A DNA stretch of 38,440 bases, from IMG/VR virus record IMGVR_UViG_2663762939_000006. One strand, given 5' to 3'. This stretch comes from a virus. Taxonomy: Duplodnaviria; Heunggongvirae; Uroviricota; Caudoviricetes. Below the pieces are notes generated by a model. That model was not told the DNA's origin, made no database searches, and worked only from the letters and a program-made list of their open reading frames with translations. This document shows positions 1 to 38,440 of the stretch, piece after piece. Position 1 is the first letter of the stretch. Every line of letters starts with the position of its first letter. The translations under genes were made by a program, and so were the position numbers.

Positions 1-1149
1 TTAGATGCTTTTTAACGACGCGAACAGTGCCGCCCATTCGCTATCGGCGCGATAAAAGACCGGCGGCTTGCCGATGGGCGCATTAACGGTCACTTCCCCG
101 CCCCGGAATGCTTCACCCGTCCAGGCATGGACCCAGTTATCCTCCGGCAGATAGAGCGTCCAGTCGCTACGGCCTTCTTCATGCACCGGAGCGACCAGAA
201 TGTCGCGGCCTAACAGGTACTGATATTTCAGGGTGTAGGTCTGCGCGTCGTCTTCGTAATGCAGGAACAGCGGGCGCATGACCGGCAGACCGGACTTCGC
301 ATTCAGCGCGACGGCCTCTTTCAGATAAGGTTTCAGGGTGGTGAAGACGGTGGTCATACGGGCGAAATGGGCGATGGTTTCCGCGTCGCCGTCAAACTGC
401 CAGTTGTCGCCAGGACGGTTACCTTCGTGGGTGCGCATCATCGGCGTGAAGGCGCTGAAATCGCACCAGCGCAGCAGCAGCTCTTTGCTGCGCTTCATCT
501 CAAACAGGGTGGTGTAACCGCCAATGTCGCTGTGATGCAGGCCATGTCCGGTCATTGCCAGCGACAGCGCCGCCGGGACAACCGACGCCAGGCCATCGTC
601 GAGACTCCAGTCGACGTTCTGGTCGCCCGCCCACATCATGGTGGAGTATTTCTGGCTACCGGTAGAACCGGCGCGCATAAAGAAGAGGATCTCGCCGAGC
701 TTGCCCGTTTCTTCAAGGGCTTCGTAGTTACATTTCGCCCACAGCGCAGGCCAGGCGTTATGCATAATTTCCGCGCTGACGCCGTTATGCAGGTACGTGT
801 CGGTGGGCAGATACTCGCCGAAGTCAGCCATCCAGCCGCCGCAGCCAAGTTCAATCATGTTCTTTTTGATCACTTCCTTGAACCAGGCGTAGGCTTCTGG
901 ATTGGTGAGGTCGACAACGCCGCCATAGAACTCGCCAAACTCCACCAGATAGTCGCCGCCAGAGGCATCTTTTGCCAGATAACCGCGCTTTGCCGCCTCT
1001 TCGCAGAGATCTTTATCGCTGGCTACATACGGGTTGATATAGGCCAGGAACTGCACGCCCTCTTTGTTCCACTGCTTAATACGTGAGTCCAGTTGCGGAT
1101 AGTTTTCGCTGTTCCACTTCCAGTTGATGCGCCGCGCGATAAATGCACT
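1..1149 (-). pseudogene. yihQ: 3' portion of a GH31 glycoside hydrolase gene (YihQ/sulfoquinovosidase-like); upstream half missing, in-frame stop at 1150-1152
   Basis: ORF 1..1056 translation carries GH31-like motifs (GGWMADFGEYLP); frame stays open upstream to 1149 (..NWKWNSENYPQLD..) then stops; only ~380 codons present where ~680 are expected from memory. Confidence 0.55.
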
Positions 1150-1202: not shown

Positions 1203-1775
1203 TTACATTTCAGGTTGCGTTATGACAGTCCCAACAGGGTGGTAGCGGTAGATCGTTGACAGTCCAATATCATAGATAATTGCCAGCCGCTTTCTGTCAT
1301 ACCCTTTCTGGAGCAATCTTGCGATCTGCTCATGCTGCTCCTTCGTCAGTTTCGGGCGACGTCCTCCAACTCTCCCTTGTGCTCGCGCAGCAGCCAGTCC
1401 TGCCAGCGTGCGCTCAACTATCAGTTCACGCTCCATTTCTGCCAGTGCACCCATCATATGAAAAAAGAACCTTCCCATCGGAGTGCTGGTATCGATTGAA
1501 TCCGTCAGACTGCGAAAATTGACACCTTTTGCGCGTAGCTCTTCTGTGAGAGCAATGAGGTGTTTCATTCTTCTACCCAACCGATCCAGCTTCCAGACCA
1601 CCAATGTATCCCCTCTTTTAAGGCACTTTAAAGCGCGTTTCAGGCCTGGTCGTTCCGACTTGGTTCCGCTCATTTTGTCCTCAAAAATCTGTTCACATCC
1701 TGCGCACATTAATGCATTGCGTTGCAAATCTGTGTTTTGGTCATTTGTTGACACACGTATGTAGCCAATCAGCAT
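1203..1775 (-). CDS. gin: serine recombinase, DNA invertase of the Gin/Pin/Cin/Hin family
   Basis: Translation from ATG at 1773-1775 begins MLIGYIRVSTNDQNTDLQRNAL.. (catalytic Ser motif), closely matching Gin/Pin as recalled; SD AAGGGAG upstream; stop TAA at 1203-1205. Confidence 0.9.
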   Translation of the reverse strand: MLIGYIRVSTNDQNTDLQRNALMCAGCEQIFEDKMSGTKSERPGLKRALKCLKRGDTLVVWKLDRLGRRMKHLIALTEELRAKGVNFRSLTDSIDTSTPMGRFFFHMMGALAEMERELIVERTLAGLAAARAQGRVGGRRPKLTKEQHEQIARLLQKGYDRKRLAIIYDIGLSTIYRYHPVGTVITQPEM

Positions 1776-1829: not shown

Positions 1830-1855
1830 GAGAGATAAACGTTGGTTTGGGGGAA
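1830..1855 (+). other. candidate 26-bp invertase crossover site R3 (gix/hix-like), inverted relative to R1 and R2
   Basis: GAGAGATAAACG TT GGTTTGGGGGAA; shares half-site GGTTTGGGGGAA and TT core with the other two copies; lies ~55 bp upstream of gin as gixR does in Mu. Confidence 0.6.
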
Positions 1856-2308
1856 GGCTCTGCATTGCCTGTTGGTGTACCGGTTCCATGGCCCACCGCC
1901 ACACCGCCAGCAGGCTGGTTACAGTGCAACGGAGCTACGTTCACCAAAGAACAATATCCTGTTCTGGCCAGAGTCTACCCGACCCTCCGTCTTCCCGATT
2001 TGCGCGGTGAGTTTATCCGTGGATGGGACGGTGGTCGCAAGGTTGATACCGGGCGTACGGTACTTTCATTTCAGGAAGGGACTATCGTATCCGGTTTTGA
2101 TGATAATAATACCGGAGATATCAGTTCGCTCGGCTCTACACAATACGGATTTGGTGACGCTTTAACCTCTAATCAACTGGGGGTCATAAATGGCAAAAAG
2201 TGGATATTTGATGCATCCTCTAAAGGTGCACAAAGATATGACTGGTGGGCTTATGTATCAGCTCGCCCCCGCAATATCGCATTTAACTATATCGTGAGGG
2301 CGGCGTGA
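1847..2308 (+). CDS. alternative tail-fibre C-terminal cassette Sv3 (no ATG of its own; opens with the shared GEGSALPVGVPVPWPTATPP repeat)
   Basis: ORF starts at TTG inside the repeat; N-terminal ~65 aa identical or near-identical to an internal segment of the tail-fibre gene; ends ..RPRNIAFNYIVRAA like the other cassettes. Confidence 0.7.
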   Translation: MGEGSALPVGVPVPWPTATPPAGWLQCNGATFTKEQYPVLARVYPTLRLPDLRGEFIRGWDGGRKVDTGRTVLSFQEGTIVSGFDDNNTGDISSLGSTQYGFGDALTSNQLGVINGKKWIFDASSKGAQRYDWWAYVSARPRNIAFNYIVRAA

Positions 2309-2314
2309 TACCGT

Positions 2315-2929
2315 TCAACTGGCAAGTGCCAGTGGTGCTTCCGGCCAGCTGATTTCAGGTGCCGTGCTGATATCCAGTGCGTTCAGCTCGTCGATATAAT
2401 CCAGCACGGCGTTCAGTTTTGCCGTTTCTTCTGGTGTCAGACTGCGACCAGCACGCAGTTTGAGGTTGATAAGATCGACGGACGCCATCGCCTGTTTCAC
2501 CCGTTGCTGGCGTTGCTGTCTGGCAACCTCCAGTTCTGCGGTTCGCTGCCGTTCAGTATCGGTTACCCACGCCTCACCGTTCCAGGTATCCCATGGCGTG
2601 GCTGGCTGTTTTGTGGTGGTGTCCGCCGGGTAATCACCCGGTTGGGTAATCAGAACGGGGTTACCGTTCTCCGTGCTGTATACCGTCTCGCCGCGGTGAT
2701 CAGGCACATGCTCCCACCCGTTCAGCGTGGCAGTCCGGCAAACCACGTAACCCGAAATTGCCTCCGGCGGTGCATCGGCGCACGAATGTGCCGGAGTACC
2801 CACCCCAAGGGCGAGATACTCCACAGAGGATGAGGTGTATTCCCGGGTTTCCTCGTCATAGTGATATACAGTGATATCGCCCGCTACAGTGGCGATACCG
2901 TTTTCATCCAGAACTGCAGTGTTACTCAT
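2315..2929 (-). CDS. tail fibre assembly chaperone (Tfa / Mu U-like)
   Basis: ATG at 2927-2929 overlaps the Sv2 stop (TAATG); C-terminal region ..LTPEETAKLNAVLDYIDELNALDISTAPEISWPEAP is typical of the conserved Tfa chaperone domain. Confidence 0.75.
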   Translation of the reverse strand: MSNTAVLDENGIATVAGDITVYHYDEETREYTSSSVEYLALGVGTPAHSCADAPPEAISGYVVCRTATLNGWEHVPDHRGETVYSTENGNPVLITQPGDYPADTTTKQPATPWDTWNGEAWVTDTERQRTAELEVARQQRQQRVKQAMASVDLINLKLRAGRSLTPEETAKLNAVLDYIDELNALDISTAPEISWPEAPLALAS

Positions 2930-3441
2930 TAAACTGCCCTCACAATGTAATTAAGTGCAATGCTACGGGGTCTGACAGTGATACCCTTCGCATACCCGCT
3001 TCTGATAGAGGTCAGAATAGTAGCCTGCATACCATTGTCTGACATTGCTATGACAGGATCGCTGAATGTTGTCCCGTCCGGCATTTTAAAGCTGCCCTCA
3101 CGAAGGTCTGTAATGGAATCTTCATTGTTGAATCCCATGCCGACTATCCCCGAGGTTCCCGTAGTGTCCTGGTTATAATAATCCAGCATTGCTGTTCTTA
3201 ACAGCGTTGCCCCTTGTGCGGACAGCAACTTACGTCCTGTATCAACTTTGCGCCCGTCGTCCCATCCACGGATAAACTCACCGCGTAAATCGGGAAGACG
3301 GAGGGTCGGGTAGGCTCTGGCCAGAACAGGATATTGTTCTTTTGTAAAGGCGCGCCCGTCGCACTTTAACCAGCCTTCTGGCGGTGTGGCGGTGGGCCAT
3401 GGAACCGGTACACCAACAGGCAATGCAGAGCCTTCCCCCAA
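2929..3441 (-). CDS. alternative tail-fibre C-terminal cassette Sv2 (promoterless, same orientation as the expressed fibre)
   Basis: Begins at TTG within the shared repeat 9 bp after the tail-fibre stop; ends ..NYIVRAV; followed by tfa. Confidence 0.7.
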   Translation of the reverse strand: MGEGSALPVGVPVPWPTATPPEGWLKCDGRAFTKEQYPVLARAYPTLRLPDLRGEFIRGWDDGRKVDTGRKLLSAQGATLLRTAMLDYYNQDTTGTSGIVGMGFNNEDSITDLREGSFKMPDGTTFSDPVIAMSDNGMQATILTSIRSGYAKGITVRPRSIALNYIVRAV

Positions 3442-3458
3442 ACCAACGTTTAGGCCGC
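3433..3458 (-). other. candidate 26-bp invertase crossover site R2 (direct orientation relative to R1)
   Basis: On the minus strand GCGGCCTAAACG TT GGTTTGGGGGAA; ~75 bp around it is identical to R3 in inverted orientation. Confidence 0.55.
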
Positions 3459-4577
3459 CCTGACAATGTAGTTAAAGGCAATATTTCGTGGACGGGTTTC
3501 CCTCCCGCCAGTATTACCGATACTCCCTCGCGAATGAAGTGTTGGTGATGGGGTCAGACTCCCTCCTGTATTTGTGGCATCAAGTCCTCGTCCTTGTGTG
3601 TATGTTTTTTTGAAAATCGCAGCCAGTTCCCATTCATCTTTTGTGTCGTAACCATCATTGGCAACAACAATATGACGGTGTTTCTCAATCATTCCGCTCT
3701 GGCTGCTTAGCAGGGCACGCCCGGTGTCAATCTTTCGTCCGTCATCCCATCCACGGATAAACTCACCGCGCAAATCGGGAAGACGGAGGGTCGGGTAGAC
3801 TCTGGCCAGAACAGGATATTGTTCTTTGGTGAACGTAGCTCCGTTGCACTGTAACCAGCCTGCTGGCGGTGTGGCAGTGGGCCACGGAACAGGTACACCA
3901 ACGGGCAGCGCCGAGCCTTCCCCCAAACCAAGGTAATTGAGGACATCTTTTATACTGCCCTTAGCGATAATAGCGCGACCAATAGCTGTAAGGGTTGCCA
4001 GCGCTGCGCGGTCTGCTCCGGTAAAATAAGGCAACCGATCTGCTGCAGTGGCAAGTCCTGCCAGAGCAGTGAGCGTGGCATCTGCCGGTTGTTTTCCGTT
4101 TGCCAGATCGTATGCAGCCTTGACCGCTTTCGGTGTGGCGGCCAGTATTTCAGACGTGCTGTTGATGGCACTGCTCAGTTGTACGGTGCCTTTTGCCGTC
4201 AGCGAGGCAGCAGGCACTCCCGTTATCTGACTCCACGGGTGAGTGTGGCTGACGGGCGCCTTGCCGGCTGCAAGGTCGTATGCAGCCTTGACGGCTTTTG
4301 GTGTGGCGGCCAGCGTTTCAGAGGTGCTGTTGGTGGCACTGCTCAGTTGGGTGAACCCCTTAGCTGTCAGTGTCGCGTCCGGGTGGTTACGGGAACGTAC
4401 GTGTTCAGCCAGTGACTGTGCGGCTTCCTCCGTTTTTTTCTTCAGCCATTTCGTCCTGTTTGCCAGTTGCCGGGGGGCTCGATTTGATATCCCGTCTGCA
4501 CCACCCAGAACCGGATCTGATGTCTCCAGTTGATAGATATTTTCTTCCCACTTTTCTGTTTCATTCAGGTTTCCCAT
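3450..4577 (-). CDS. tail fibre protein (Mu S / P2 H-like) currently fused to cassette Sv1
   Basis: N-terminus ..NETEKWEENIYQLETSDPVLGG..RQLANRTKWL typical of Mu/P2/lambda side-fibre N-termini; ATG at 4575-4577 with SD GGGAG; stop TAA 3450-3452. Confidence 0.85.
   Translation of the reverse strand: MGNLNETEKWEENIYQLETSDPVLGGADGISNRAPRQLANRTKWLKKKTEEAAQSLAEHVRSRNHPDATLTAKGFTQLSSATNSTSETLAATPKAVKAAYDLAAGKAPVSHTHPWSQITGVPAASLTAKGTVQLSSAINSTSEILAATPKAVKAAYDLANGKQPADATLTALAGLATAADRLPYFTGADRAALATLTAIGRAIIAKGSIKDVLNYLGLGEGSALPVGVPVPWPTATPPAGWLQCNGATFTKEQYPVLARVYPTLRLPDLRGEFIRGWDDGRKIDTGRALLSSQSGMIEKHRHIVVANDGYDTKDEWELAAIFKKTYTQGRGLDATNTGGSLTPSPTLHSRGSIGNTGGRETRPRNIAFNYIVRAA
3918..3943 (-). other. 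candidate 26-bp invertase crossover site R1 inside the tail-fibre gene (constant/variable boundary)
   Basis: On the minus strand TCCTCAATTACC TT GGTTTGGGGGAA; about 17 of 26 positions match the Hin hixL site TTATCAAAAACCTTGGTTTTCAAGAA as recalled. Confidence 0.6.
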
Positions 4578-4579
4578 AA

Positions 4580-5158
4580 TCAACTGCTCCCGTGGTTATA
4601 ACTGCCATCATGGATGGCTGTATTGTTATAGCGAATGGCCACAGACTGATACTCCAGGCTGGCCAGATGGCAGCGGGCCGGTGCAAATGCAGCCAGCGTC
4701 TGACGCAGCATCGCGGCCTGATCGTTAGTAATGGGCTGTTTCAGAATAACGCGATAAACTGCCCAGGCGGCTGCATCTCCATGAACAAACAGTCCGTTAT
4801 AGCTGCGATTGCCGTCGTAACTGAGACGACCTGTGCCTTCAATCAGATCCACTTCACCAAAGCCAAAACGGCGGATAACTTCCCGGATTGACCACGGCGT
4901 CCCTTTATACCGGTGCAGTTCGATGGCTGCTTTTATAAGCATGCGGCGAACATCGTCCGATTCCGCCAGCTCCCAGCCATCGCCAGACAGTGAGAACTGC
5001 TCGCCCAGCCATGGCAGCGCGGAACTGTCGACGATATCGACGAGAAAGACCATCAGTACGCTCAGGTCGATGTTATCCAGCCGTCCTGCCAGTCTTCCCA
5101 GCGTCCTGAGACTGATATCACCCTCAAGCGGTGGCGGGAGTTGTAATGGCTCAGTCAT
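4580..5158 (-). CDS. tail protein (Mu gp48 / P2 gpI-like)
   Basis: Position between baseplate J and tail fibre; start ATG overlaps upstream stop (ATGACTGA); size and composition fit the family. Confidence 0.65.
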   Translation of the reverse strand: MTEPLQLPPPLEGDISLRTLGRLAGRLDNIDLSVLMVFLVDIVDSSALPWLGEQFSLSGDGWELAESDDVRRMLIKAAIELHRYKGTPWSIREVIRRFGFGEVDLIEGTGRLSYDGNRSYNGLFVHGDAAAWAVYRVILKQPITNDQAAMLRQTLAAFAPARCHLASLEYQSVAIRYNNTAIHDGSYNHGSS

Positions 5159-28157: not shown

Positions 28158-28922
28158 ATGAAAATGCAGACATTACCCATCGTTCCATGGATTGGTGGCA
28201 AACGCCGCCTTGCAAAACACATTCTGCCGCTGTTTCCGGCGCATGAATGTTATGTGGAGCCGTTTTGTGGGGCAGCAGCGCTCTATTTTCTTAAGACACC
28301 CGGCAAGATCGAAGTCATTAATGATATCAACGGTGAACTGGTGAATCTGTACCGGGTGGTAAAGCATCACCTGGAAGAATTTGTCCGCCAGTTCAAATGG
28401 GCGCTGGTCAGCCGTCAGATCTACAAATGGCTGCAGATCACCCCGGAAGAAACACTGACGGATATCCAGCGTGCGGCACGGTTCTACTACCTTCAGAAGC
28501 AGGCGTTTGGCGGCAAGGTGGCAGAGCACAGCTTCGGTACCTCCACCACATCCCCGCCACGCTTCAACCTGCTGCGTATTGAAGAAGAACTGTCAACAGC
28601 ACACCTGCGGCTTTCCAGAACAGTCATAGAACACATGGACTGGCAACAGTGCATTGAGCGTTATGATCGTCCGCACACACTGTTCTACTGCGACCCACCG
28701 TACCTGGGTACGGAAGGCTATGGTGTGGATTTTCCTGAAGGGAACTACTCGCGGCTGGCAGAGCTGGCCCGGTGCATCAGAGGAAAAATGATAATTTCGG
28801 TGAACGATATCCCACAGATGCGCGAGGTGTTCACTGGACTGAACATACAGACAGTGAACATCAACTACAGTCTGGCGGGGAAATCCACGCCGCGCCGTGA
28901 ACTGGTAATCTGCAACTTCTGA
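28158..28922 (+). CDS. DNA N6-adenine methyltransferase (Dam-like, D12 class)
   Basis: N-terminal ..KRRLAKHILPLFPAHECYVEPFCGAAALYF.. and catalytic DPPY motif (YCDPPYLGTEGYG). Confidence 0.85.
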   Translation: MKMQTLPIVPWIGGKRRLAKHILPLFPAHECYVEPFCGAAALYFLKTPGKIEVINDINGELVNLYRVVKHHLEEFVRQFKWALVSRQIYKWLQITPEETLTDIQRAARFYYLQKQAFGGKVAEHSFGTSTTSPPRFNLLRIEEELSTAHLRLSRTVIEHMDWQQCIERYDRPHTLFYCDPPYLGTEGYGVDFPEGNYSRLAELARCIRGKMIISVNDIPQMREVFTGLNIQTVNINYSLAGKSTPRRELVICNF

Positions 28923-30037: not shown

Positions 30038-30949
30038 ATGGGACGCACCAAATCACCGATTAACACTGAACTGAACGCCGAGGTACCGCTGTCGGATGAT
30101 CTCAATGTCAGTCTGAACGCCATGACACAGCATCGTATGGAGATCATGCAGCAGTTTGGCGATGGTCAGCCCTATGAGCGTGATCGCATAGTTCATGAGG
30201 CTCGGTTTTATATGGCACAGAGCGCTGAGGCCATGCTGGAAGCAGGTAAACGACTTATTATTCTCAAAGAAAATGAACCTCACGGGGACTTTGTTGGAAT
30301 TGTAGAAGAACAACTTGGTCTGCATGTGCGCGCAGCACAACGAATGATGAAAGCATCTTTGAAATACCTTTCACCAAAACTAGAGCCAAAAGCGACAACG
30401 TTGTCGCTTTTAGGTAAGGCAAAATTATTTGAACTTGTTGCTGAAGATGACGACGACCTTGCTGAACTGGCCGACGGTGGCACAGTTGCCGGACTGACGC
30501 TTGACGATGTTGATCGCATGTCAGTACGTGAATTGCGTCAGGCCCTGCGCGAAGCGCGCGAAACCAACGCAGCACAACAGCGCGTACTCGCCGACAAAAA
30601 TGAAAAAATAGACTCACTCTCCACCAGACTGGAGAAGAAATCCCGTATTCAGCCACCTGAGCCTGATGAAGAGGTGAAGAAACTGCGGGCAGAAGTGACC
30701 GCGTTAGCGGTTGAGGCGGAATCTGCCATCGCCGTTCGACTGTCCAGCGCTTTTGAGACGCTGTGCGCATATTGTGCTGAAAACATGATTGATACCCCCA
30801 GAGACTTCATGGCAGGCCTGGTCTGTCAACTGGAAAGCACAGCGCGTAGCCTGCGCTCCACATTTGACCTGCCGGACGAGCCAACAGGCAATGCAGCGCC
30901 TTCATGGCTGACTGAGCCGACGCCACAGATTAACGGGCTGGAGGCATAA
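30038..30949 (+). CDS. hypothetical early protein (303 aa, coiled-coil-rich)
   Basis: SD AAGGAG, ATG 30038; immediately upstream of transposase. Confidence 0.5.
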   Translation: MGRTKSPINTELNAEVPLSDDLNVSLNAMTQHRMEIMQQFGDGQPYERDRIVHEARFYMAQSAEAMLEAGKRLIILKENEPHGDFVGIVEEQLGLHVRAAQRMMKASLKYLSPKLEPKATTLSLLGKAKLFELVAEDDDDLAELADGGTVAGLTLDDVDRMSVRELRQALREARETNAAQQRVLADKNEKIDSLSTRLEKKSRIQPPEPDEEVKKLRAEVTALAVEAESAIAVRLSSAFETLCAYCAENMIDTPRDFMAGLVCQLESTARSLRSTFDLPDEPTGNAAPSWLTEPTPQINGLEA

Positions 30950-30952
30950 CCA

Positions 30953-32722
30953 ATGAATGCTGCCCTGACTGAACGACTGGTTTATGTCGCCCGCGCGGCA
31001 CGTGACGCGGGGCATGGTAAACGCGGTGCAATATACGACGCTGCCTGTGCTGAACTTGGCATGTCCCGCGCCACTCTGCTGCGCAGGCTGAAGGAGGTCT
31101 CTGTGACTGATAAACGCAAAAAACGCGCCGATGCCGGGCGCAGCGCCCTGACCCGCGACGAAGCCGCGCTGATATCTGCCACACTGCGTGAGGCCACCCG
31201 CAAGAACGGTAAGCGTCTCTATTCCATCGCAGATGCAGTGGAAACCCTGCGGGCTAACGGCTTTATCACCGCAGGCAGAACAGATGAAACCACCGGTGAG
31301 TTTTTCCCGTTGTCCGAAGATGCCATCAGCCGAGCCCTGCGTAACTATGGCCTGCACCCGGAACAACTGGATGCCCCTGCGCCGCATACCGAAGTGGCCA
31401 GTCTGCATCCCAATCATGTCTGGCAGATTGATGCCTCTCTCTGCACGCTTTACTACCTGAGCAATGGACACAAAGGGCTGCAGGTGATGGACAGCGCGAA
31501 GTTCTACAAGAACAAACCCGCTAACCTTGCCCGTATCGCCAGTGACCGCGTGTGGAGTTACGAGATTACCGACCATGCCAGCGGCTGGATTTACGTTGAG
31601 TATGTGACGGGTGCGGAATCCGGTGAGAACCTGTGTTCTGTGCTTATCAACGCCATGCAGGAGCGTGGCGGCGCAGACGTGCTGCACGGCGTGCCAAAAA
31701 TACTCTATCTCGACCCCGGCTCGGCAAACACCGCGGGTATGACGAAAAACATGTGCCACTCACTGGGCATTGACCTGATAGCGCACAAGCCGCATAACGC
31801 CCGCGCCACCGGACAGGTGGAAAAGGCGCGTGACATTATCGAACGCAAGCTGGAGCCGGGTCTGAAGTTCCGGCCGGTTCACAGTCTGGAAGAACTCAAC
31901 GCGCTGGCCGCGAAATGGCGCAGCCACTTTAACGCCACGGCTGTTCACAGCCGCCACGGTAAAACCCGCACGGATATCTGGCTGAAGATTACTGCTGAGC
32001 AGCTGAAAAAAGCGCCTTCCGTTGAGGTATGCCGTGAACTGGCTGTGGCGGCACCAGAACTCCGCAAAGTCACGCCAAAACTTCGTGTCTCGTTCCGGGG
32101 CACTGAATTTGACGTATCAACGGTACCGGGCGTACTGGTTGGTGAAAAACTGATGATTACCCGTAACCCGTGGCGCAGCGATGTGGCACAGGTGGTTCTG
32201 ACCGGTGAGGACGGCCACGAGACGTTCTTCCTGGTCGAAGAGGTCAGAAAGAACGAGTTTGGCTTTGCTGAAGGCGCGGCGGTATTTGGCGAAAGTTACA
32301 AAGCCCTGCCGGAAACCCCGGCGCAGATGGCGGCAAAAGAAACCGAAGCGCTGGTCACCGGTACAGACAACGCCGCAGATGCAGCTGCCGCACGCAAGGC
32401 GAAGGCGCTGCCGTTCGGCGGGCGGCTTGACCCGTATAAACATATCGACGACACCACACTTCCGGCCTATATGCCGAAGCGTGGTCAGGCCTCTGACGTA
32501 CGCGGGCCGCGCACTGAACAACGTCCCATGACTCATGTGGAGGCCGCGAAAGCCCTGCGCGATAAGTTCAGCGCCGACGGCCTTACCTGGACGCCGGAAC
32601 ATTACCGCCAGTTAACGGCACAGTACCCGGACGGCGTACCGGAAGCCGCACTGGATGAAGTCATGGCCACGCTGACCACACCGGCCCGCAGCAGTGTTAT
32701 CAGCATTGTTAACGGCAACTGA
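30953..32722 (+). CDS. DDE transposase (Mu A-like, integrase-core fold)
   Basis: 589 aa; ..HVWQIDAS.. and ..LYLDPGSANT.. acidic-residue blocks consistent with a DDE/rve core; followed by a B-like ATPase. Confidence 0.8.
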   Translation: MNAALTERLVYVARAARDAGHGKRGAIYDAACAELGMSRATLLRRLKEVSVTDKRKKRADAGRSALTRDEAALISATLREATRKNGKRLYSIADAVETLRANGFITAGRTDETTGEFFPLSEDAISRALRNYGLHPEQLDAPAPHTEVASLHPNHVWQIDASLCTLYYLSNGHKGLQVMDSAKFYKNKPANLARIASDRVWSYEITDHASGWIYVEYVTGAESGENLCSVLINAMQERGGADVLHGVPKILYLDPGSANTAGMTKNMCHSLGIDLIAHKPHNARATGQVEKARDIIERKLEPGLKFRPVHSLEELNALAAKWRSHFNATAVHSRHGKTRTDIWLKITAEQLKKAPSVEVCRELAVAAPELRKVTPKLRVSFRGTEFDVSTVPGVLVGEKLMITRNPWRSDVAQVVLTGEDGHETFFLVEEVRKNEFGFAEGAAVFGESYKALPETPAQMAAKETEALVTGTDNAADAAAARKAKALPFGGRLDPYKHIDDTTLPAYMPKRGQASDVRGPRTEQRPMTHVEAAKALRDKFSADGLTWTPEHYRQLTAQYPDGVPEAALDEVMATLTTPARSSVISIVNGN

Positions 32723-32732
32723 GGAGGGAAAC

Positions 32733-33899
32733 ATGCTGGTACTGAAGCAGCAACTGAAAGAGGCCCGTATTCCACAGGCGGTGGTGGCGAGAGCTGTCGA
32801 TGTTTCTGAGGCCACGCTGGCCCAGATTGTGAATCATAACGCGTGGCCCCGCACCAGCCCCGGAGAAGTGCGCCGGCGTCTTGCGTCCTGGCTGGAAAGT
32901 CAGGGGATTGATACAACGAAGAGTTTTGATGCTGTACAGGGCGCGGCCACGCCCCGTACAGCGGGTACCACAGATAAAACGAGCCTCAGTGAGGAAGAGA
33001 ATATGTTACTCAAAAAACAGGTGTTATTTCCAGCAACCAAAAAAGCGTTTGGTCTTTTCCGTGACCCGTTCGCCGACGAAGCCATTCAGGGTTCTGATGA
33101 TGTGTTCACCACCCCGGACATTCGCTACGTGCGTGAGGCGTTGTACCAGACAGCCCGTCATGGTGGGTTTATGGCCGTCATCGGTGAGTCCGGTGCGGGT
33201 AAATCCACGCTGCGCCGCGACCTGACTGAACGTATCAACCGCGAGAATGCGCCGGTAATTGTTATCGAGCCATACATCATCGCTATGGAAGACAACGATG
33301 TGAAAGGGAAAACCCTGAAGGCAGCAGCGATTGCCGAAGCCATTATCAGTACCATCGCACCACTGGAAAGCATCAGACGCAGTCAGGACGCCCGCTTTCG
33401 CCAGTTGCATCGCGTCCTGAAAGACAGCAGCCAGGCGGGGTTCAGCCACGTTCTGGTGATTGAGGAGGCCCACAGTCTGCCTATTCCGACACTGAAACAC
33501 CTCAAACGCTTTTTTGAGCTGGAGTCCGGTTTCAAAAAACTGCTGTCCATCGTGCTGATTGGCCAGCCGGAACTGGCGACAAAACTGTCTGAACGCAATA
33601 TGGAAGTCCGTGAAGTCGTTCAGCGCTGTGAGGTGGTCGAACTTCTGCCTCTGGACAATAACCTTGAAGAGTTTCTGACGTTCAAACTGCAACGGGCCGG
33701 TAAACAACTGACGGACATTATGGACGCCAGCGCAGTGGATGCCATACGTGCCCGCCTGAGCAATCCGGGAAGTCATCGTAAAAATATGGTCAGCCTGCTG
33801 TATCCGCTGGCCGTCAGTAACCTGGTAATAGCCGCCATGAATCTGGCCGCTGAAATCGGGGTTCCACAGGTCAACGCTGACGTTGTCAAAGGGGTTTAA
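32733..33899 (+). CDS. transposition ATPase (Mu B-like AAA+ with N-terminal HTH)
   Basis: ATG 32733 after SD GAGGAGGG; Walker A GESGAGKST; N-terminal DNA-binding-like segment. Confidence 0.75.
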   Translation: MLVLKQQLKEARIPQAVVARAVDVSEATLAQIVNHNAWPRTSPGEVRRRLASWLESQGIDTTKSFDAVQGAATPRTAGTTDKTSLSEEENMLLKKQVLFPATKKAFGLFRDPFADEAIQGSDDVFTTPDIRYVREALYQTARHGGFMAVIGESGAGKSTLRRDLTERINRENAPVIVIEPYIIAMEDNDVKGKTLKAAAIAEAIISTIAPLESIRRSQDARFRQLHRVLKDSSQAGFSHVLVIEEAHSLPIPTLKHLKRFFELESGFKKLLSIVLIGQPELATKLSERNMEVREVVQRCEVVELLPLDNNLEEFLTFKLQRAGKQLTDIMDASAVDAIRARLSNPGSHRKNMVSLLYPLAVSNLVIAAMNLAAEIGVPQVNADVVKGV

Positions 33900-33901
33900 T
33901 A

Positions 33902-34171
33902 ATGAAATCCACCACAGGTATCAACCAGCAAATCAGCAAAGTGCAGTCAGCCATTATGGCGCTTAAGGCGACGAACACGGATGTACAAAGCATCACCATC
34001 AGGGGTAACAAACCTGTCATCCGCGTTTCCCGGAGTGCGCATTGCATGCGCATGCTTGAGCAGGGAAAGGCCTGTTATCTGTATACCGGTCATGACCACA
34101 GGGGACATTTCCGTCAGGGCGTTTTCGAACTGCACGGCTGTCGCGTCGTGTGGCCGGAATCTTTGTGGTAA
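33902..34171 (+). CDS. hypothetical small protein (Cys/His-containing)
   Basis: ATG 33902 abutting B stop (TAATAATG). Confidence 0.45.
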   Translation: MKSTTGINQQISKVQSAIMALKATNTDVQSITIRGNKPVIRVSRSAHCMRMLEQGKACYLYTGHDHRGHFRQGVFELHGCRVVWPESLW

Positions 34172-34198
34172 TCAGCACAACAGGAGGAGTCATAAAAT

Positions 34199-34729
34199 AT
34201 GGCAAAAAGTACAAAAGGGGCAAAACGTATCAAAGCCGCAGCAGCACTCTGGGTGCCGGGGACACGCGAAGAGGTCATTGAGGGAATCAGACTGCTTGGT
34301 GACGCGCAACGTGAACTGGTCAGGGCTGAAACAGAAATGAATGACACCATTGGCGACATCACCGCACGTTATGCCCCGCTCACCGAGAGCCTGAAAAAAC
34401 GCATGGCCGAACTGCAGTCCGGTATTCAGACATGGTGTGAGGCACACCGTAATGAACTGACCGGCAACGGGAAGGTGAAGTTCGCTAACCTCACCACCGG
34501 CGAGGTGCAGTGGCGAAACCGTCCGCCATCAGTCAGTATCCGTGGGGCGGATAATGTTATTGAATTACTGAGACGTCTGGGGCTTGAGCGCTTTATCCGT
34601 GTAAAGGAGGAAATAAATAAAGACGCCATCCTGAATGAAAAGGACGCCGTGAAAAATATTCCCGGTATTACCATAAAAAGTGATATTGAGGATTTTTCAA
34701 TAATTCCTTTTGAGCAGAATGTGCAGTAA
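34199..34729 (+). CDS. gam: Gam-like host-nuclease inhibitor (DNA-end binding)
   Basis: SD AGGAGG; 176 aa; N-terminal Lys-rich ..RIKAAAALWVPGTREEV.. then coiled-coil, as in Mu Gam. Confidence 0.7.
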   Translation: MAKSTKGAKRIKAAAALWVPGTREEVIEGIRLLGDAQRELVRAETEMNDTIGDITARYAPLTESLKKRMAELQSGIQTWCEAHRNELTGNGKVKFANLTTGEVQWRNRPPSVSIRGADNVIELLRRLGLERFIRVKEEINKDAILNEKDAVKNIPGITIKSDIEDFSIIPFEQNVQ

Positions 34730-34825
34730 AAACAGCATATAAGCTATTTAAAACAGCCTTTTCTTTTTTATTCCGGCATCAGCGCCGTGGGCTTCTGCAC
34801 GCCGGAAACAGAGGAGAATTAAATC

Positions 34826-35020
34826 ATGATATTTAAATGTATTCAGTGCGAGAGGGATATAACAGCCCTGCGTTTTCACAGCGCCATCGCCGTGATGTCC
34901 GGTAAGTACCACGTACCTGCAGTACGCGTCACCCTGGTCTGTCCGTACTGCAGTCAGCATTTTTCGGCAGACGTGCCCGTCATGGAATTCTCCCGCCCTG
35001 ACAGGGAGGACTCGCAATGA
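34826..35020 (+). CDS. small zinc-ribbon protein (CxxC...CxxC)
   Basis: CIQC and CPYC pairs; SD GAGGAG. Confidence 0.5.
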   Translation: MIFKCIQCERDITALRFHSAIAVMSGKYHVPAVRVTLVCPYCSQHFSADVPVMEFSRPDREDSQ

Positions 35021-35289
35021 TTACCCCACAGGAAGCACGACAGCGCACCCGAACCCTTGTTGAACACTATGTCAACGAGTGTGAATGCCGCGACCTCACC
35101 GATGTGAAGCACGTCCTGACGGCGCTAATCAGCATGACCGCTCAGGCCATTGTGGCGACCAACGGAAAGGCGGCTGCCCTGCAGGTACTGGTGAACACAC
35201 TCACCCACACGGCAGAGCACGATGTGCCGTACCGGATGGAAACCACTGCAGAAGGCGGCCTGCACATCACCGTCGACCGGAAACACTGA
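35017..35289 (+). CDS. hypothetical protein (90 aa)
   Basis: ATG overlaps upstream stop (ATGA); SD GGGAGGA. Confidence 0.45.
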   Translation: MITPQEARQRTRTLVEHYVNECECRDLTDVKHVLTALISMTAQAIVATNGKAAALQVLVNTLTHTAEHDVPYRMETTAEGGLHITVDRKH

Positions 35290-35298
35290 GGGCGCGGC

Positions 35299-35604
35299 AT
35301 GACACGGAACACCGAACTCACCCGCACCGCCCTCTACCGTCTGGCCCTGCAGCGTTTCGGGCCGGACGCACAGGCCCTGAAACTGACAGAAGAGGCCGCT
35401 GAACTGGCGGCCAGTGCCGCCCGCAACCTGAACGGACAGGGCAGCGAAAGTGACCTCGCGGCAGAGCTGGCAGACGTGGAAATCATGACAGAGCAGCTGC
35501 GCCTTCAGGGAATGGACCGGCTGATTGACTTCCACAAACAGAAAAAACTGGAACGCCTTGCCGCACGGCTGGGCGTCATGTACACCGGAGATACTGAACA
35601 ATGA
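35299..35604 (+). CDS. MazG-like nucleotide pyrophosphohydrolase domain protein
   Basis: ..LTEEAAELAASAAR.. and ..AAELADVEIMTEQL.. resemble the EExxE / ExxD metal-binding helices of MazG-family proteins. Confidence 0.5.
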   Translation: MTRNTELTRTALYRLALQRFGPDAQALKLTEEAAELAASAARNLNGQGSESDLAAELADVEIMTEQLRLQGMDRLIDFHKQKKLERLAARLGVMYTGDTEQ

Positions 35605-36284
35605 CAGACCAGGATAAACACATTGAGAAACTGAAAAAGTTGCTGGCGCTGGCCGCATCCGGCAACCCTCACGAGGCCGCTCTGGCACTGCGCCGTGCCC
35701 GTAAACTGATGGATGTTCACGGCATCACACATTCCGACATCGCCATGAGTGATATTGATGAAACCATCAGTCACTACTGGCCGACAGGCAGCCTCCGTCC
35801 ACCGCGCTACATGCTGGGCCTGATGAACATCATCCGCGAGGCATTTGGTGTTAACTCCATCATTCACCCCGGCACATATCCGGGTGTGGGGTTCTACGGC
35901 AACCGGGAACGGGCTGCACTGGCTGCGTACACCTGGGAAGTGCTGGCCCGCCAGCTGAAAAAGGCGCGTCAGCAATATATCAGCGCACAGAACAAAAGAA
36001 TAAAAACTGCCACCCGTACCAGCCGTGGTGACCAGTTTGCTGAAGGCTGGGTGCTGGCCGTTATCAGTGAAATACAGTCCTTCGCCCTGACCGATGACGA
36101 ACGTGAACTGATGCAGCAGTGGCTGGAACATAAATACCCGCAGACGCAAACCACCAGGGCGCGTAAACCGGGAAGAAGCCGCAATGGCGACGCCTCGCGC
36201 TATGCGGGGTTTCTTGAAGGGCAGAACGTCAGACTGCACCGCCCGGTCAGTGGGCAGGAACAACAGAAACTGGAGGCCAGATGA
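35601..36284 (+). CDS. hypothetical protein with DUF2786-like N-terminus
   Basis: ..KHIEKLKKLLALAASGNPHEAALALRRARKLM.. ; translationally coupled. Confidence 0.45.
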   Translation: MTDQDKHIEKLKKLLALAASGNPHEAALALRRARKLMDVHGITHSDIAMSDIDETISHYWPTGSLRPPRYMLGLMNIIREAFGVNSIIHPGTYPGVGFYGNRERAALAAYTWEVLARQLKKARQQYISAQNKRIKTATRTSRGDQFAEGWVLAVISEIQSFALTDDERELMQQWLEHKYPQTQTTRARKPGRSRNGDASRYAGFLEGQNVRLHRPVSGQEQQKLEAR

Positions 36285-36511
36285 TTACGCTATCAGGTAA
36301 AAGCCGGAAATTAAAAGCCTGCCGAATATCTGCCAGATACCTTTTTGCCCGCGCCTTTTTTAAGAACGTCAGGCCGGGGATCACAATTGGTGTTATTGCC
36401 GGACGCGAACAGGTTGAAAAATACATGTCAGGTGCATGGTGGAATAACGACCCTGTCATTGCTGCCCGTAATATTCATATCAGTTGGGGGGATATTCAGA
36501 ATGACGGCTGA
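36281..36511 (+). CDS. hypothetical small protein (76 aa)
   Basis: ATG 36281 overlaps upstream stop; SD GGAGG. Confidence 0.4.
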   Translation: MITLSGKSRKLKACRISARYLFARAFFKNVRPGITIGVIAGREQVEKYMSGAWWNNDPVIAARNIHISWGDIQNDG

Positions 36512-36716
36512 ATCTGTTGTATGTGCCCTGTTCTGGTATTGTTTTGTCGGTTGGTGTACTGCTGAACTGCACCGCCGTTCAGGGTTTTATTCACGTTACA
36601 GTGGTGCTGGCTACTGGATTAGCTGGTCGGTGATGTTCCTGTGCTGGCCTGTGGCGCTTCCTTTATATGTCGATTATATCGGTGGCGCAGGTAAAAGGAG
36701 CAACGATGATGACTAA
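36501..36716 (+). CDS. small membrane protein (two predicted TM helices)
   Basis: ATG 36501 overlaps upstream stop; hydrophobic segments VVCALFWYCFVGW and WSVMFLCWPVALPLYV. Confidence 0.45.
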   Translation: MTAESVVCALFWYCFVGWCTAELHRRSGFYSRYSGAGYWISWSVMFLCWPVALPLYVDYIGGAGKRSNDDD

Positions 36717-37158
36717 ACAACGTCTTATCCAGCTCATTCATATTGCCCGTAATGAACTGGGTATGGATGAAGACACCTACCGCCAGATGTTACAGGGGCT
36801 GACCGGTAAAGCCTCAACCAAAGGAATGGATACCACACAACTAAACTGCGTGCTGGAATCCATGAAAAGGAAAGGCTTTCGCGTTAAGCCTGCCGGAAAA
36901 GCCAGCTCCGGTTTACCGCTGGATAACCATCCGCAGTCCAGGAAAATCCGTGCGCTATGGCTTGAAATGGCTGCTGCCGGCATTGTTCGTGACCGTTCAG
37001 AAAATGCATTAGCGCGGTGGATCAAGCGGGAAACGGGCATCAGCGCCCTGCGCTGGCTCAGTACTGAACAGGCAAGCAGTGTTATTGAGAAACTGAAGAA
37101 GTGGCAGCGCAGAGCTGCGGGAGTCAAACATGAGCGACCTGAATCAGTTTCGAAGTAA
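36706..37158 (+). CDS. gemA: GemA-like regulatory protein
   Basis: SD AAAAGGAG, ATG 36706; ..LIQLIHIARNELGMDEDTYRQMLQGLTGKAS.. resembles the Mu GemA family. Confidence 0.6.
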   Translation: MMTKQRLIQLIHIARNELGMDEDTYRQMLQGLTGKASTKGMDTTQLNCVLESMKRKGFRVKPAGKASSGLPLDNHPQSRKIRALWLEMAAAGIVRDRSENALARWIKRETGISALRWLSTEQASSVIEKLKKWQRRAAGVKHERPESVSK

Positions 37159-37528
37159 AGGGCCGGAACTCCTGGTGGAGCTGGCACAGCATACCTCTGA
37201 GACCGTTCGCGAGATTATTGATATTGAGCCCGCAATTGCCGACCAGATTGGTCAGGCCGTCGCGAACCGAATGATGCAGGTCTGGGGCGGGCAAAATGTT
37301 TATTTCCCGATGGGCATGGTATGGAAGGTCAGTCAGCGCGACCGGGAAATCTTCAGGGAGTTTAACGGACGCAACCACCACGAACTGGCCCGCAAGTTTG
37401 GTGTTTCGCTTCAGTGGGTCTACAGCGTGGTTAAGCGGGTCAGAAAAGAAGAACTGGATCGGATGCAGGGCAGGTTGTTTGATGAAGATCTGCCAGAGGA
37501 GACGAAAGACGTTAACAAATCCAGATAA
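37130..37528 (+). CDS. mor: Mor/C-family transcription activator
   Basis: 132 aa; C-terminal HTH ..NHHELARKFGVSLQWVYSVVKRVRKEE.. typical of the Mor/C family; last gene of the early operon as in Mu. Confidence 0.7.
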   Translation: MSDLNQFRSKGPELLVELAQHTSETVREIIDIEPAIADQIGQAVANRMMQVWGGQNVYFPMGMVWKVSQRDREIFREFNGRNHHELARKFGVSLQWVYSVVKRVRKEELDRMQGRLFDEDLPEETKDVNKSR

Positions 37529-38278: not shown

Positions 38279-38440
38279 TTATTTTTTCCCTGGGGCAGGG
38301 GCTGCCGGCATAGTGGTTTTATTGGCAGAGGAAGACGATTCTCCTTTTCTACCGGAATCGCGCTCGAACGTCACGATGTGCTTGCTTTTGGGCTTTTCTG
38401 AGTAATCCAGGCTATCATGCTTATTGTTTTGAGTAGTCAT
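38279..38440 (-). CDS. small Lys/Ser-rich hydrophilic ORF (53 aa in window; may extend past window end)
   Basis: ATG at the last three bases of the window, stop TAA 38279-38281; convergent with the membrane protein gene. Confidence 0.3.
   Translation of the reverse strand: MTTQNNKHDSLDYSEKPKSKHIVTFERDSGRKGESSSSANKTTMPAAPAPGKK

Follow-up and report, generated by a model that had tools for sequence, protein, structure and literature searches.

Three copies of a ~200-bp repeat open the three interchangeable tips of a tail-fibre gene next to a DNA invertase gene in the 38,440-nt stretch of viral DNA analyzed here (the window), and parts of these copies are identical to one another while other parts have diverged. 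The locus raises the question of which process exchanged sequence between the copies, and whether the invertase could have done so itself. A sequence-only reading had taken the third copy, R3, to be a mosaic of the other two and had interpreted the pattern as the trace of cassette shuffling by past exchanges within the repeats.

Organization of the locus

The features of the locus are compiled in Table 1. The invertase aligned to the Mu Gin structures 3UJ3/4M6F over residues 1-181 (E 1e-93), including the YxRVSTxDQ motif, and the same protein (WP_000904922.1) is annotated in the related loci L001, L002, L083 and L103-L108. The 5' 389 nt of its gene, the part in which Din-family systems have a Fis-dependent recombinational enhancer, are 74% identical to gin, with nt ~135-150 well kept in terms of identity. 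Three crossover sites of 26 bp, each with two 12-bp half-sites around a 2-bp core, share the same inner half and the same TT core, and their alignment to Mu gix (TTATCCAAAACC-TC-GGTTTACAGGAA) falls on the boundary annotated for the G segment. The pattern GGTTTGG[GA]GGAAGG matched three times in the window, each time at one of these sites. The starts 1830, 3458 and 3943 given for the three copies in the sequence-only reading coincide with the exact outer edges of the sites. Throughout, offset 0 denotes the G of GGTTTGGGGGAA (or GGTTTGGGGGAAGG), which corresponds to positions 1844 (R1), 3444 (R2) and 3929 (R3).

Table 1. Features of the tail-fibre switch in the window
Feature	Positions	Strand	Basis or remark
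Gin/Pin-type serine DNA invertase, 190 aa	1203-1775	-	Pfam Resolvase 8e-51, HTH_7 1e-12
Crossover site 1, invertase-proximal	1830-1855	+	outer half GAGAGATAAACG, core TT 1842-1843, inner half GGTTTGGGGGAA
Crossover site 2	3433-3458	-	outer half GCGGCCTAAACG (includes the V2 stop codon), core TT 3445-3446, inner half GGTTTGGGGGAA
Crossover site 3	3918-3943	-	outer half TCCTCAATTACC (end of the constant part), core TT 3930-3931, inner half GGTTTGGGGGAA
Repeat R1	1836-2067	+	
Repeat R2	3221-3452	-	
Repeat R3	3717-3934	-	
Head of R1, collar-domain coding start of V0, matching the other two copies in turn	1844-2029	+	pairwise alignment
Breakpoint interval (13 bp without differences among the three copies, offsets 54-66), R1	1898-1910	+	
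Breakpoint interval, R2	3378-3390		
Breakpoint interval, R3	3863-3875		
Window-specific base in head of R2, offset 44	3400	-	mismatched in all five close relatives (position 1556 of segment X)
Cassette V0, silent alternative tail-fibre C-terminus	1844-2308	+	ORF 1847-2308; Pfam Collar 7e-16
Tail-fibre assembly protein (tfa) gene, 204 aa	2315-2929	-	Pfam Caudo_TAP 5.5e-28
Cassette V1 with head of R2 (3259-3444), upstream of tfa; silent alternative C-terminus	2929-3444	-	ORF 2929-3441; Collar 3e-16
Cassette V2 with head of R3 (3745-3929), presently fused in frame to the constant part	3450-3929	-	Collar 2e-15
Constant N-terminal part of the tail-fibre gene	3932-4583	-	Pfam Phage_fiber_2 repeats 1e-38

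Cassette V0 comprises a collar domain and a tip of ~90 aa ending in ...RPRNIAFNYIVRAA. Both V0 and V1 are in-frame cassettes without a promoter, while a 377-aa ORF (3450-4583) runs through site 3 into V2. The switch has a single tfa gene, downstream of V1, and genes matching Tail_P2_I and Baseplate_J precede the constant part. Neither the fibre nor the tfa protein received a family name from NCBIfam. To judge from these features, the locus is a Gin-type, three-site tail-fibre host-range switch. The type of invertase, the 26-bp sites with a common core, the inversion described below and the fusion of alternative C-termini each place it in the Din family, and the presence of three crossover sites makes its arrangement Min-type (more than two sites). 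The constant 5' portion of the fibre gene (4583 to 3932, minus strand) ends in a crossover site. In the proposed mechanism, the invertase (1775 to 1203) recombines this site with the two others, placing one of the three C-terminal cassettes behind it, V2 at present and V1 or V0 following inversion. With two sites pointing one way and one the opposite way, four isomers result.

Profile searches of the gene content revealed Mu-like functions (rve, AAA_22, Phage_Mu_Gam and Portal_Mu). The insertion disrupts an alpha-glucosidase gene (PRK10426), and the prophage neighbours other genes in L001, L002, L083 and L103-L107. The DDE transposase, AAA+ helper, Gam and portal genes as well as the insertion site that differs from host to host indicate a transposable, Mu-like prophage, which belongs to the family of the E. 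coli EC958 prophage Phi2. Relatives L002-L004, which adjoin aroA, fit the EC958 Phi2 arrangement and carry V3 in place of the window's V2. No record in the phage collection spanned at least 80% of the switch, the best being the unannotated 'Escherichia phage 503046' at 79%, and an exact-pattern scan of viral contigs for family members yielded only 16 loci, several of them already in the set. Among E. coli genomes, ~230 contain 80% or more of the locus.

Segmental identity among the repeat heads

Pairwise alignment supported the existence of the three copies, which are 87-93% identical to each other, and located a single sharp switch of identity. From offset -8 to 66 (75 bp), R1 and R2 exhibited no differences (1836-1910 versus 3452-3378), while R3 departed from both at 11 positions, four in the outer half-site and seven in the head. 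From offset 54 to 184 (131 bp), R1 was identical to R3 (1898-2028 versus 3875-3745) and R2 departed at 13 positions, nine of which were non-synonymous. Beyond offset 184 all three copies diverge. The last informative site shared by R1 and R2 was at offset 53 and the first shared by R1 and R3 at offset 67, and the differences of 0/75 and 0/131 compare with 7/60 and 13/125 in the alternate pairings. Since R2 and R3 differ in both blocks, it is R1, and not R3 as originally proposed, that matches the other two copies in turn. The identity of R3 and R1 over the following ~130 bp was borne out, while that of R3 and R2 over the first ~75 bp holds for the protein only, as GLGEGSALPVGVPVPWPTATPP is encoded by all three copies. 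At the nucleotide level it is R1 that equals R2 there.

The informative sites sorted perfectly into the two blocks, hereafter A and B: the first seven all exhibit one pattern and the remaining 13 the second, and at none do R2 and R3 agree against R1. Such sorting of 20 sites is expected by chance with P = 2/C(20,7) = 2.6e-5 (2e-5 by permutation). Uniform divergence without a switch, the outcome that would speak against exchange, was thus not observed, and a chance arrangement, or uniform divergence combined with convergent mutation, is of negligible probability, with nothing in its favour except the small number of sequences. The seven differences of R3 in block A (offsets 17-53) were all synonymous, which also argues against chance and indicates that the shared identity of this block does not reflect selection at the protein level. 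Segmental identity with sharp break points on a diverged background is the pattern by which gene conversion is recognized, and it is present in these heads.

Assembly or polishing could in principle homogenize parts of the repeats through multi-mapped reads or mixed isomers, and mixed isomers are known to mislead assemblies at loci of just this kind (PMC4134206). On the other hand, the V0 and V2 heads were identical in the independent complete genomes L001, L105 and L107, which have other chromosomal insertion sites and differ in their isomer states, with only the V1 head off by one base. An artefact is therefore hardly credible. The V2 head of L104, at another insertion site, likewise matched that of the window.

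Position of the invertase exchange and changes in the heads

For the same three cassettes, three of the four possible inversion isomers were found in complete E. coli genomes: state 1 in the window and L001, state 2 in L107, and state 4 in L103, L105 and L108. State 3, with the constant part fused to V0, was present in relatives but not in the window's cassette set. Overall, the constant part continued into V0 in L083, L091 and L100 and into V1 in L103, L105, L108 and L004, while V2 stood alone beside the invertase in L083, L103, L105 and L108. Closer comparison of the isomers L103, L105 and L107 revealed that the outer half of site 2 stays put while the heads permute. The outer half-sites are fixed and each ~185-bp head travels whole with its cassette; L003 and L004 exhibited the same fixed outer half-sites and intact heads. 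The nearest distinguishing positions confine the point of exchange to the interval from offset -3 to offset +5. These genome comparisons indicate that inversion takes place with exchange at the site, and the bracket is consistent with exchange inside the 26-bp site, at a TT core located at the 5' extreme of each repeat. Inversion of EC958 Phi2 was observed experimentally as alternative PacBio contigs (PMC4134206).

These observations bear directly on whether the mosaic is a by-product of cassette shuffling by the invertase, with site-specific exchange inside the repeats leaving the breakpoint. The enzyme is demonstrably active in this family, as evident from the isomers and from PMC4134206. 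However, every junction between pairs of isomers lay at offsets -3 to +5 with the heads whole, and the break points vary between loci. Serine invertases make their cuts at a core of 2 bp and then rotate without branch migration, and thus cannot place a junction 54-66 bp away. Because the exchange maps to the 26-bp site, the invertase cannot set a breakpoint 54-66 bp inside the head, and because the breakpoint lies there, a different process, homologous recombination or gene conversion, is needed. We regard an origin in invertase action as very unlikely. The shuffling suspected earlier is therefore real, as seen in the three isomers, but it is not what the mosaic records. A candidate quasi-site for the invertase at the breakpoint was rejected: the interval GCCACACCGCCAG is unlike the site, and the only site-core matches in the window are the three described above.

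Comparison of the same locus in related prophages was informative with regard to this other process. Over 2,780 bp, near-identical relatives differed from the window only by one conversion tract of seven sites and one converted base, both in the heads and both at most 55 bp from the core. L103 and L108 differed from the window at eight positions over this length, seven of which fell in the V0 head at offsets 17-53 and were all turned to the state of the V2 head. In these loci the V0 head now matches the neighbouring V2 head, 485 bp distant, without any difference, and the V2 head itself was unaltered. Seven co-ordinated changes within 37 bp, against a background of one difference per 2,780 bp, speak further against chance, and the alteration of the recipient but not the donor marks the event as non-reciprocal. 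The eighth difference, in the V1 head at offset 44, corresponds to base 3400, the sole difference of the window from L001 and L107 over the 2,780 bp. It shifts R2 to the state of R1 and results in the identity of R2 and R1 over 75 bp. This base could be a mere point mutation; a random hit on a distinguishing site that produces the state of the partner is estimated at ~0.3%.

Across ~30 loci, block A, block B and the variable tip occurred in reassorted combinations. Past exchange within the repeats, as originally proposed, is essentially correct, since recombination inside them is needed to explain the block structure. Each of the four A x B gametes was observed. V1 was found with at least six and V4 with at least five A/B combinations, and V0 with either B type. 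V2 invariably carried the alpha type of block B, and V1 the beta type in nearly all cases, while V0 and the A blocks vary. Hybrid A haplotypes break at offsets 38-44 (L001), 26-35 (L014) and elsewhere in L007 and L083. As the break points vary, homologous rather than site-specific exchange is favoured.

We therefore consider it probable, at about 0.8, that the mosaic was generated by homologous, at least partly non-reciprocal, recombination between the repeat heads of an invertase-driven host-range switch, a reading that comes from comparison of sequences. The gix alignment and the isomer bracketing place strand exchange by the invertase in the TT core, where each repeat starts. The ~185-bp repeat past each site would be dispensable for the enzyme; it is the conserved phage-tail-collar coding start of the cassette. 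Since the heads are long and similar, they would be substrates for general homologous recombination, in which patches are copied from head to head (gene conversion) or swapped with related phages, and the end points would vary. The identity of R1 to R2 for 75 bp and then to R3 for 131 bp would be the footprint of such events. The agent was presumably the host RecA pathway or a phage recombinase. With regard to the older A/B junction of R1, this copy could either be the recombinant (one event) or have donated its sequence to R2 as well as R3 (two events).

The blocks might instead have been imported from other phages or plasmids by homologous recombination between elements, with the conserved collar head and the likewise conserved ...NIAFNYIVRAA end serving as handles. 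Head-block alleles and cassette types are shared widely across loci. Relatives also differ in cassette content, with V3, V4 or V6 replacing V2 or V0 and four cassettes in L083, and V2-like tips occur in O157 pinE prophages as well as ~96-kb P1-like plasmids. Likewise, no clear excess of identical blocks within loci relative to between loci was detected in a small, phylogenetically non-independent sample (p=0.95 for block A and p=0.03 for block B), for which reason no predominance of conversion within the locus is claimed. Exchange with other phages may be as important. On the other hand, the two latest events have the donor state in the same locus and in otherwise identical DNA, and import as the general explanation is possible but unlikely. 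Import is itself a sub-case of homologous recombination and may hold for the older R1 junction.

We tentatively suggest, as a doubtful but possible extension, that the heads and the ...RPRNIAFNYIVRAA ends abutting the next site are handles, kept homologous by conversion, for capturing and donating receptor-binding tips from a pool common to Mu-like prophages, pinE-type prophages and P1-like plasmids. The result would be a two-tier system with homologous recombination for acquisition and editing and the invertase for switching of expression. A sharper version is that conversion may be stimulated near the crossover site, given the location of both recent events. In the favoured reading, two recombination processes act on one host-range locus, with the invertase selecting the expressed tip and general recombination in the collar-coding heads editing and reassorting the cassettes and probably permitting gain or loss of tips. 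For annotation and assembly, the ~200-bp heads are partly identical and isomers of a single prophage vary between genomes, and calls of 'partial tail protein' pseudogenes at such loci represent silent cassettes. This type of host-range switch is already well known and the current understanding of Din-type switches is unchanged; the result is solid but ordinary.

Relation to known inversion systems

In phage Mu there are two sites and 34-bp repeats, and the two long Sv parts come with two cognate tfa genes (U and U'). The window resembles the Mu G segment in its Gin-like invertase adjoining the segment at the phage end (E 1e-93), its 26-bp sites with a GGTTT...GAA inner half, the fusion of C-termini at the crossover site and the transposable nature of the phage. 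Unlike Mu, it exhibits three sites, ~200-bp coding repeats, cassettes of ~150-170 aa and one tfa gene, and its early genes are on the strand opposite the late genes. In the Min system of p15B, a Din-family invertase acting on more than two sites permutes several tail-fibre 3' cassettes. That system has six sites on a plasmid prophage, in contrast to the three sites on a Mu-like chromosomal prophage in the window. In the Cin/C segment of P1, the crossover sites mark the outer termini of long coding inverted repeats of 0.6 kb. P1-like arrays of 5-9 heads exhibited only ~70-74% identity in the head. For both p15B Min and P1 Cin, mosaic cassettes have reportedly been discussed by Sandmeier, Iida and Arber as evolution by recombination.

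As in gene conversion and concerted evolution of repeats, short patches would be copied non-reciprocally between dispersed repeats with variable ends; unlike in programmed diversification, conversion in the window appears to be a by-product of coding homology.

A counterpart from the same prophage family is the tail-fibre switch of Phi2 in EC958 (ST131), described by Forde et al. 2014 (PMC4134206). The outer half-sites TCCTCAATTACC-TT and GAGAGATAAACG-TT are identical in Phi2 and the window, with the Phi2_3prime crossover site identical to the sequence of window site 1 and the Phi2_5prime site to the outer half and core of site 3. Both loci have a ~200-bp imperfect inverted repeat past the sites, Phage_fiber_2 repeats in the constant part and a Collar domain in the invertible part. 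The passages covered give Phi2 two sites and one invertible segment of 2,067 bp and do not treat block-wise identity of its repeats, whereas the window and its relatives have three sites and L083 four. A prophage 'shufflon' of EPEC E2348/69 (Goldberg et al. 2014, PMC4272514), by its description, is also similar in organization: it has three partially homologous inverted repeats, two inversions and four co-existing, PCR-validated variants, each reachable from two others. It is described as lying in a P2-like prophage, in contrast to the Mu-like one analyzed here, and its state graph is exactly that derived for the window.

Identity blocks in the cassette heads

A repeat search of the window identified three copies with pairwise identities of 87-93%, R1, R2 and R3, which contain the collar-coding heads of the alternative tail-fibre cassettes V0, V1 and V2, respectively. 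When these were anchored on the motif GGTTTGGGGGAAGG (offset 0: positions 1844, 3444 and 3929), two clean blocks were found to hold all of their nucleotide differences. Across offsets -8 to 66 (75 bp, block A) no difference was observed between R1 and R2, while R3 was distinct at four outer half-site positions and at seven positions at offsets 17-53, all synonymous. Across offsets 54 to 184 (131 bp, block B) R1 and R3 were without difference and R2 was distinct at 13 positions, nine of them non-synonymous, the encoded protein being AGWLQCNGATFT...RVYP in R1 and R3 and EGWLKCDGRAFT...RAYP in R2. No site pairing R2 with R3 was present before offset 187, and beyond offset 185 all three copies were mutually divergent. 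R1 is the copy that matches each partner in turn, since in neither block are R2 and R3 identical. For an order in which seven sites with one pattern precede 13 with the other, P = 2/C(20,7) = 2.6e-5 (permutation, 2e-5).

The sequence-only reading had R3 identical to R2 over ~75 bp and to R1 over the next ~130 bp. The second identity was recovered as described, while the first is wrong in nucleotides: the identical pair there is R1/R2, and all three copies encode GLGEGSALPVGVPVPWPTATPP in this segment, a three-way identity at the protein level only. The segmental switch itself thus holds, but not with the pairing originally given.

Coordinates of features in the window
Feature	Position	Strand	Basis or description
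R1 repeat	1836-2067	+	Repeat search, ~220 bp
R2 repeat	3221-3452	-	Repeat search, ~220 bp
R3 repeat	3717-3934	-	Repeat search, ~220 bp
Serine recombinase ORF (pin)	1203-1775	-	Resolvase and HTH_7 domains
Cassette V0, headed by R1	1844-2308	+	In-frame, promoterless, collar head
Tail-fibre assembly gene (tfa), sole copy	2315-2929	-	Caudo_TAP; 3' of V1
Cassette V1, headed by R2	2929-3444	-	In-frame, promoterless, collar head
Cassette V2, headed by R3	3450-3929		
Tail-fibre protein ORF, 377 aa	3450-4583	-	Phage_fiber_2 repeats in N-terminal part
rve transposase	30953-32722	+	Domain match
AAA+ helper	32694-33899	+	Domain match
Gam	34199-34729	+	Domain match

Crossover sites and inversion isomers

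The locus is a Din-family tail-fibre switch (Mu Gin/G, P1 Cin/C, e14 Pin/P, p15B Min) and belongs specifically to the EC958 Phi2 prophage family. Its recombinase matches the Mu Gin structures 3UJ3 and 4M6F (E 1e-93). The first 389 nt of the gene, the part where an enhancer of the Din systems would lie, are 74% identical to gin in DNA. Past the site at 3918-3943 the fibre ORF, with Tail_P2_I, Baseplate_J, W-like, V-like and GPD-like genes upstream, continues through R3, a phage-tail-collar domain and a tip of ~96 aa. V0 and V1 both end in ...RP(R/S)NIA(F/L)NYIVRA(A/V). RefSeq calls the silent cassettes "phage tail protein, incomplete; missing N-terminus" pseudogenes in L001-L002, L083, L104 and L107; they are intact promoterless alternative 3' ends.

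Every repeat opens with a 26-bp site in which a TT core separates a 12-bp outer half from the inner half GGTTTGGGGGAA, and these sites align to Mu gix (TTATCCAAAACC-TC-GGTTTACAGGAA) exactly at the annotated G-segment boundary. The crossover sites tabulated for EC958 as Phi2_5prime and Phi2_3prime have exactly the outer halves TCCTCAATTACC-TT and GAGAGATAAACG-TT (PMC4134206), and the same source describes Phi2 inversion, observed as alternative PacBio contigs. Genome comparison revealed one cassette set, with the same V0, tfa and V2 protein accessions, in several arrangements: state 1 (pin, V0>, <tfa <V1, <V2-Sc, where Sc is the constant part of the fibre gene) in the window and L001, state 2 (pin, V1> tfa>, <V0, <V2-Sc) in L107, and state 4 (pin, V2>, V0>, <tfa <V1-Sc) in L103, L105 and L108. 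State 3, with V0 fused to the constant part, was found in L083, L091 and L100. In states 1, 2 and 4 all three outer half-sites were fixed and the heads travelled with their cassettes, the nearest distinguishing nucleotides bracketing the exchange point at offsets -3 and +5; the same pattern of fixed outer half-sites and mobile heads was seen in aroA-linked relatives (L003 versus L004, L010 and L011). Three sites with the window's polarity give four states, each linked to two others, a logic PCR-validated at a three-IR prophage locus of EPEC (PMC4272514).

Compared with the four-cassette, four-site switch of E. coli A24 (V0, V1, V3, V2; L083, NZ_CP028751.1 1900177-1908471), V3 is absent from the window type and V2 from the aroA-linked type. 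The middle outer half-sites, at the ends of V2 and V3, fit loss of a single cassette by deletion between direct-repeat sites or heads. In E. coli MS 21-1 (L106, NZ_CP146670.1 3539449-3546743) an otherwise identical switch carries an inserted IS21-family element (ISEc10 istA/istB) within its cassette region, which splits V0.

There is a single tfa for three cassettes: states 1 and 4 place it downstream of the fibre gene and co-oriented with it, and states 2 and 3 reverse it. Either Tfa is dispensable for the V0 and V2 tips, or tfa is expressed independently, or the fibres of states 2 and 3 are defective. In the O157 pinE prophage L084 a tfa gene directly follows a V2-like tip. The fibre constant part (3932-4583, tandem copies at 4093-4202 and 4261-4370) differs in length among otherwise near-identical prophages, the whole fusion protein comprising 377 aa in the window, 531 aa in L104, 599 aa in L001 and L107, and 643 aa in L103 and L108. 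The window's Phage_fiber_2 repeat stretch matches L001 four times, and the length variation appears to reflect the copy number of this ~168-bp repeat.

Homologous exchange among the heads

The mosaic identity is a real and statistically solid footprint of homologous exchange among cassette heads. A serine invertase cleaves DNA at the 2-bp core, and the exchange proceeds by rotation with no branch migration. The block junction lies 54-66 bp into the head, far from the core, and its 13-bp interval contains no site-like sequence; the mosaic thus needs a process besides the invertase. Past exchange inside the repeats, as first proposed, is upheld, but a reading of the mosaic as a trace of invertase shuffling was rejected on the position of this junction and on variable break points.

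Near-identical relatives were compared with the window over 2,780 bp, made up of the invertase side, segment X and cassette V2. A single base separates the window from L001 and L107, at position 3400 (offset 44 in the V1 head); only the window has the R1 state there, making R1 = R2 perfect (75/75). L103 and L108 differed at this base and at seven more, which lie without exception at offsets 17-53 in the V0 head and give it the V2-head state, while the V2 head itself, 485 bp off in direct orientation in this isomer, was unaltered. The change is the non-reciprocal replacement of a patch, in other words gene conversion.

Comparison with the same locus in related prophages, also proposed in the sequence-only reading, revealed that blocks A and B and the variable tip reassort independently among ~30 loci of the family. 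At least six head combinations were seen with V1 and at least five with V4 (a tip of relatives); V0 was joined to either B type, V2 to A0 or A1. Each of the four A x B gametes was present, and hybrid A haplotypes varied in where they break. Variable break points and non-reciprocity are hallmarks of homologous rather than site-specific recombination; the former accounts for the block mosaic of the heads, while the invertase moves whole cassettes at the sites.

In block B, alpha was always found in V2 and beta nearly always in V1, a pattern favouring R1 (V0) as the candidate recombinant in the older event, although two conversions with R1 as donor could also have produced this junction. The older events may instead reflect exchange with co-resident relatives, as O157 pinE prophages and P1-like plasmids carry V2-like tips as well and identical blocks were not clearly commoner within than between loci. 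As a footprint of homologous exchange, the mosaic adds modestly to a well-described system and is not a new mechanism.

Prophage type and comparison with Mu

In contrast to Mu, the locus has three sites (four elsewhere), ~200-bp coding repeats, short cassettes and one tfa gene; P1 has coding repeats too. Invertase relatives (84-86% identical) in L071, L068, L078 and L081 of IMG/VR adjoin arrays of 7-9 collar-type heads ~440-520 bp apart, i.e. tandem tfa-less cassettes, with heads just ~70-75% identical to those of the window.

The remaining window genes include a Mu-type portal, sheath, rve transposase, AAA+ helper and Gam. The prophage splits an E. coli YihQ-like alpha-glucosidase gene, of which window 1-1137(-) corresponds to PRK10426 positions 306-680, the only part of the model present; the invertase-side junction is near 1138-1200, and the window ends at 38440 within phage DNA, the other prophage end lying outside. 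In other E. coli genomes the element neighbours lambda J, aroA, mdfA, yeeA/sbmC, flgA, yegT, potG or clbH. The Mu-type gene set and the differing insertion sites mark the element as a transposable, Mu-like prophage. In Mu the early and late genes run in one direction, whereas here the early genes, including transposase, helper and Gam (30038-37528(+)), oppose the head, tail and invertase genes (1203-27754(-)), diverging from a central region; a D12-class adenine methyltransferase is encoded at 28158-28922.
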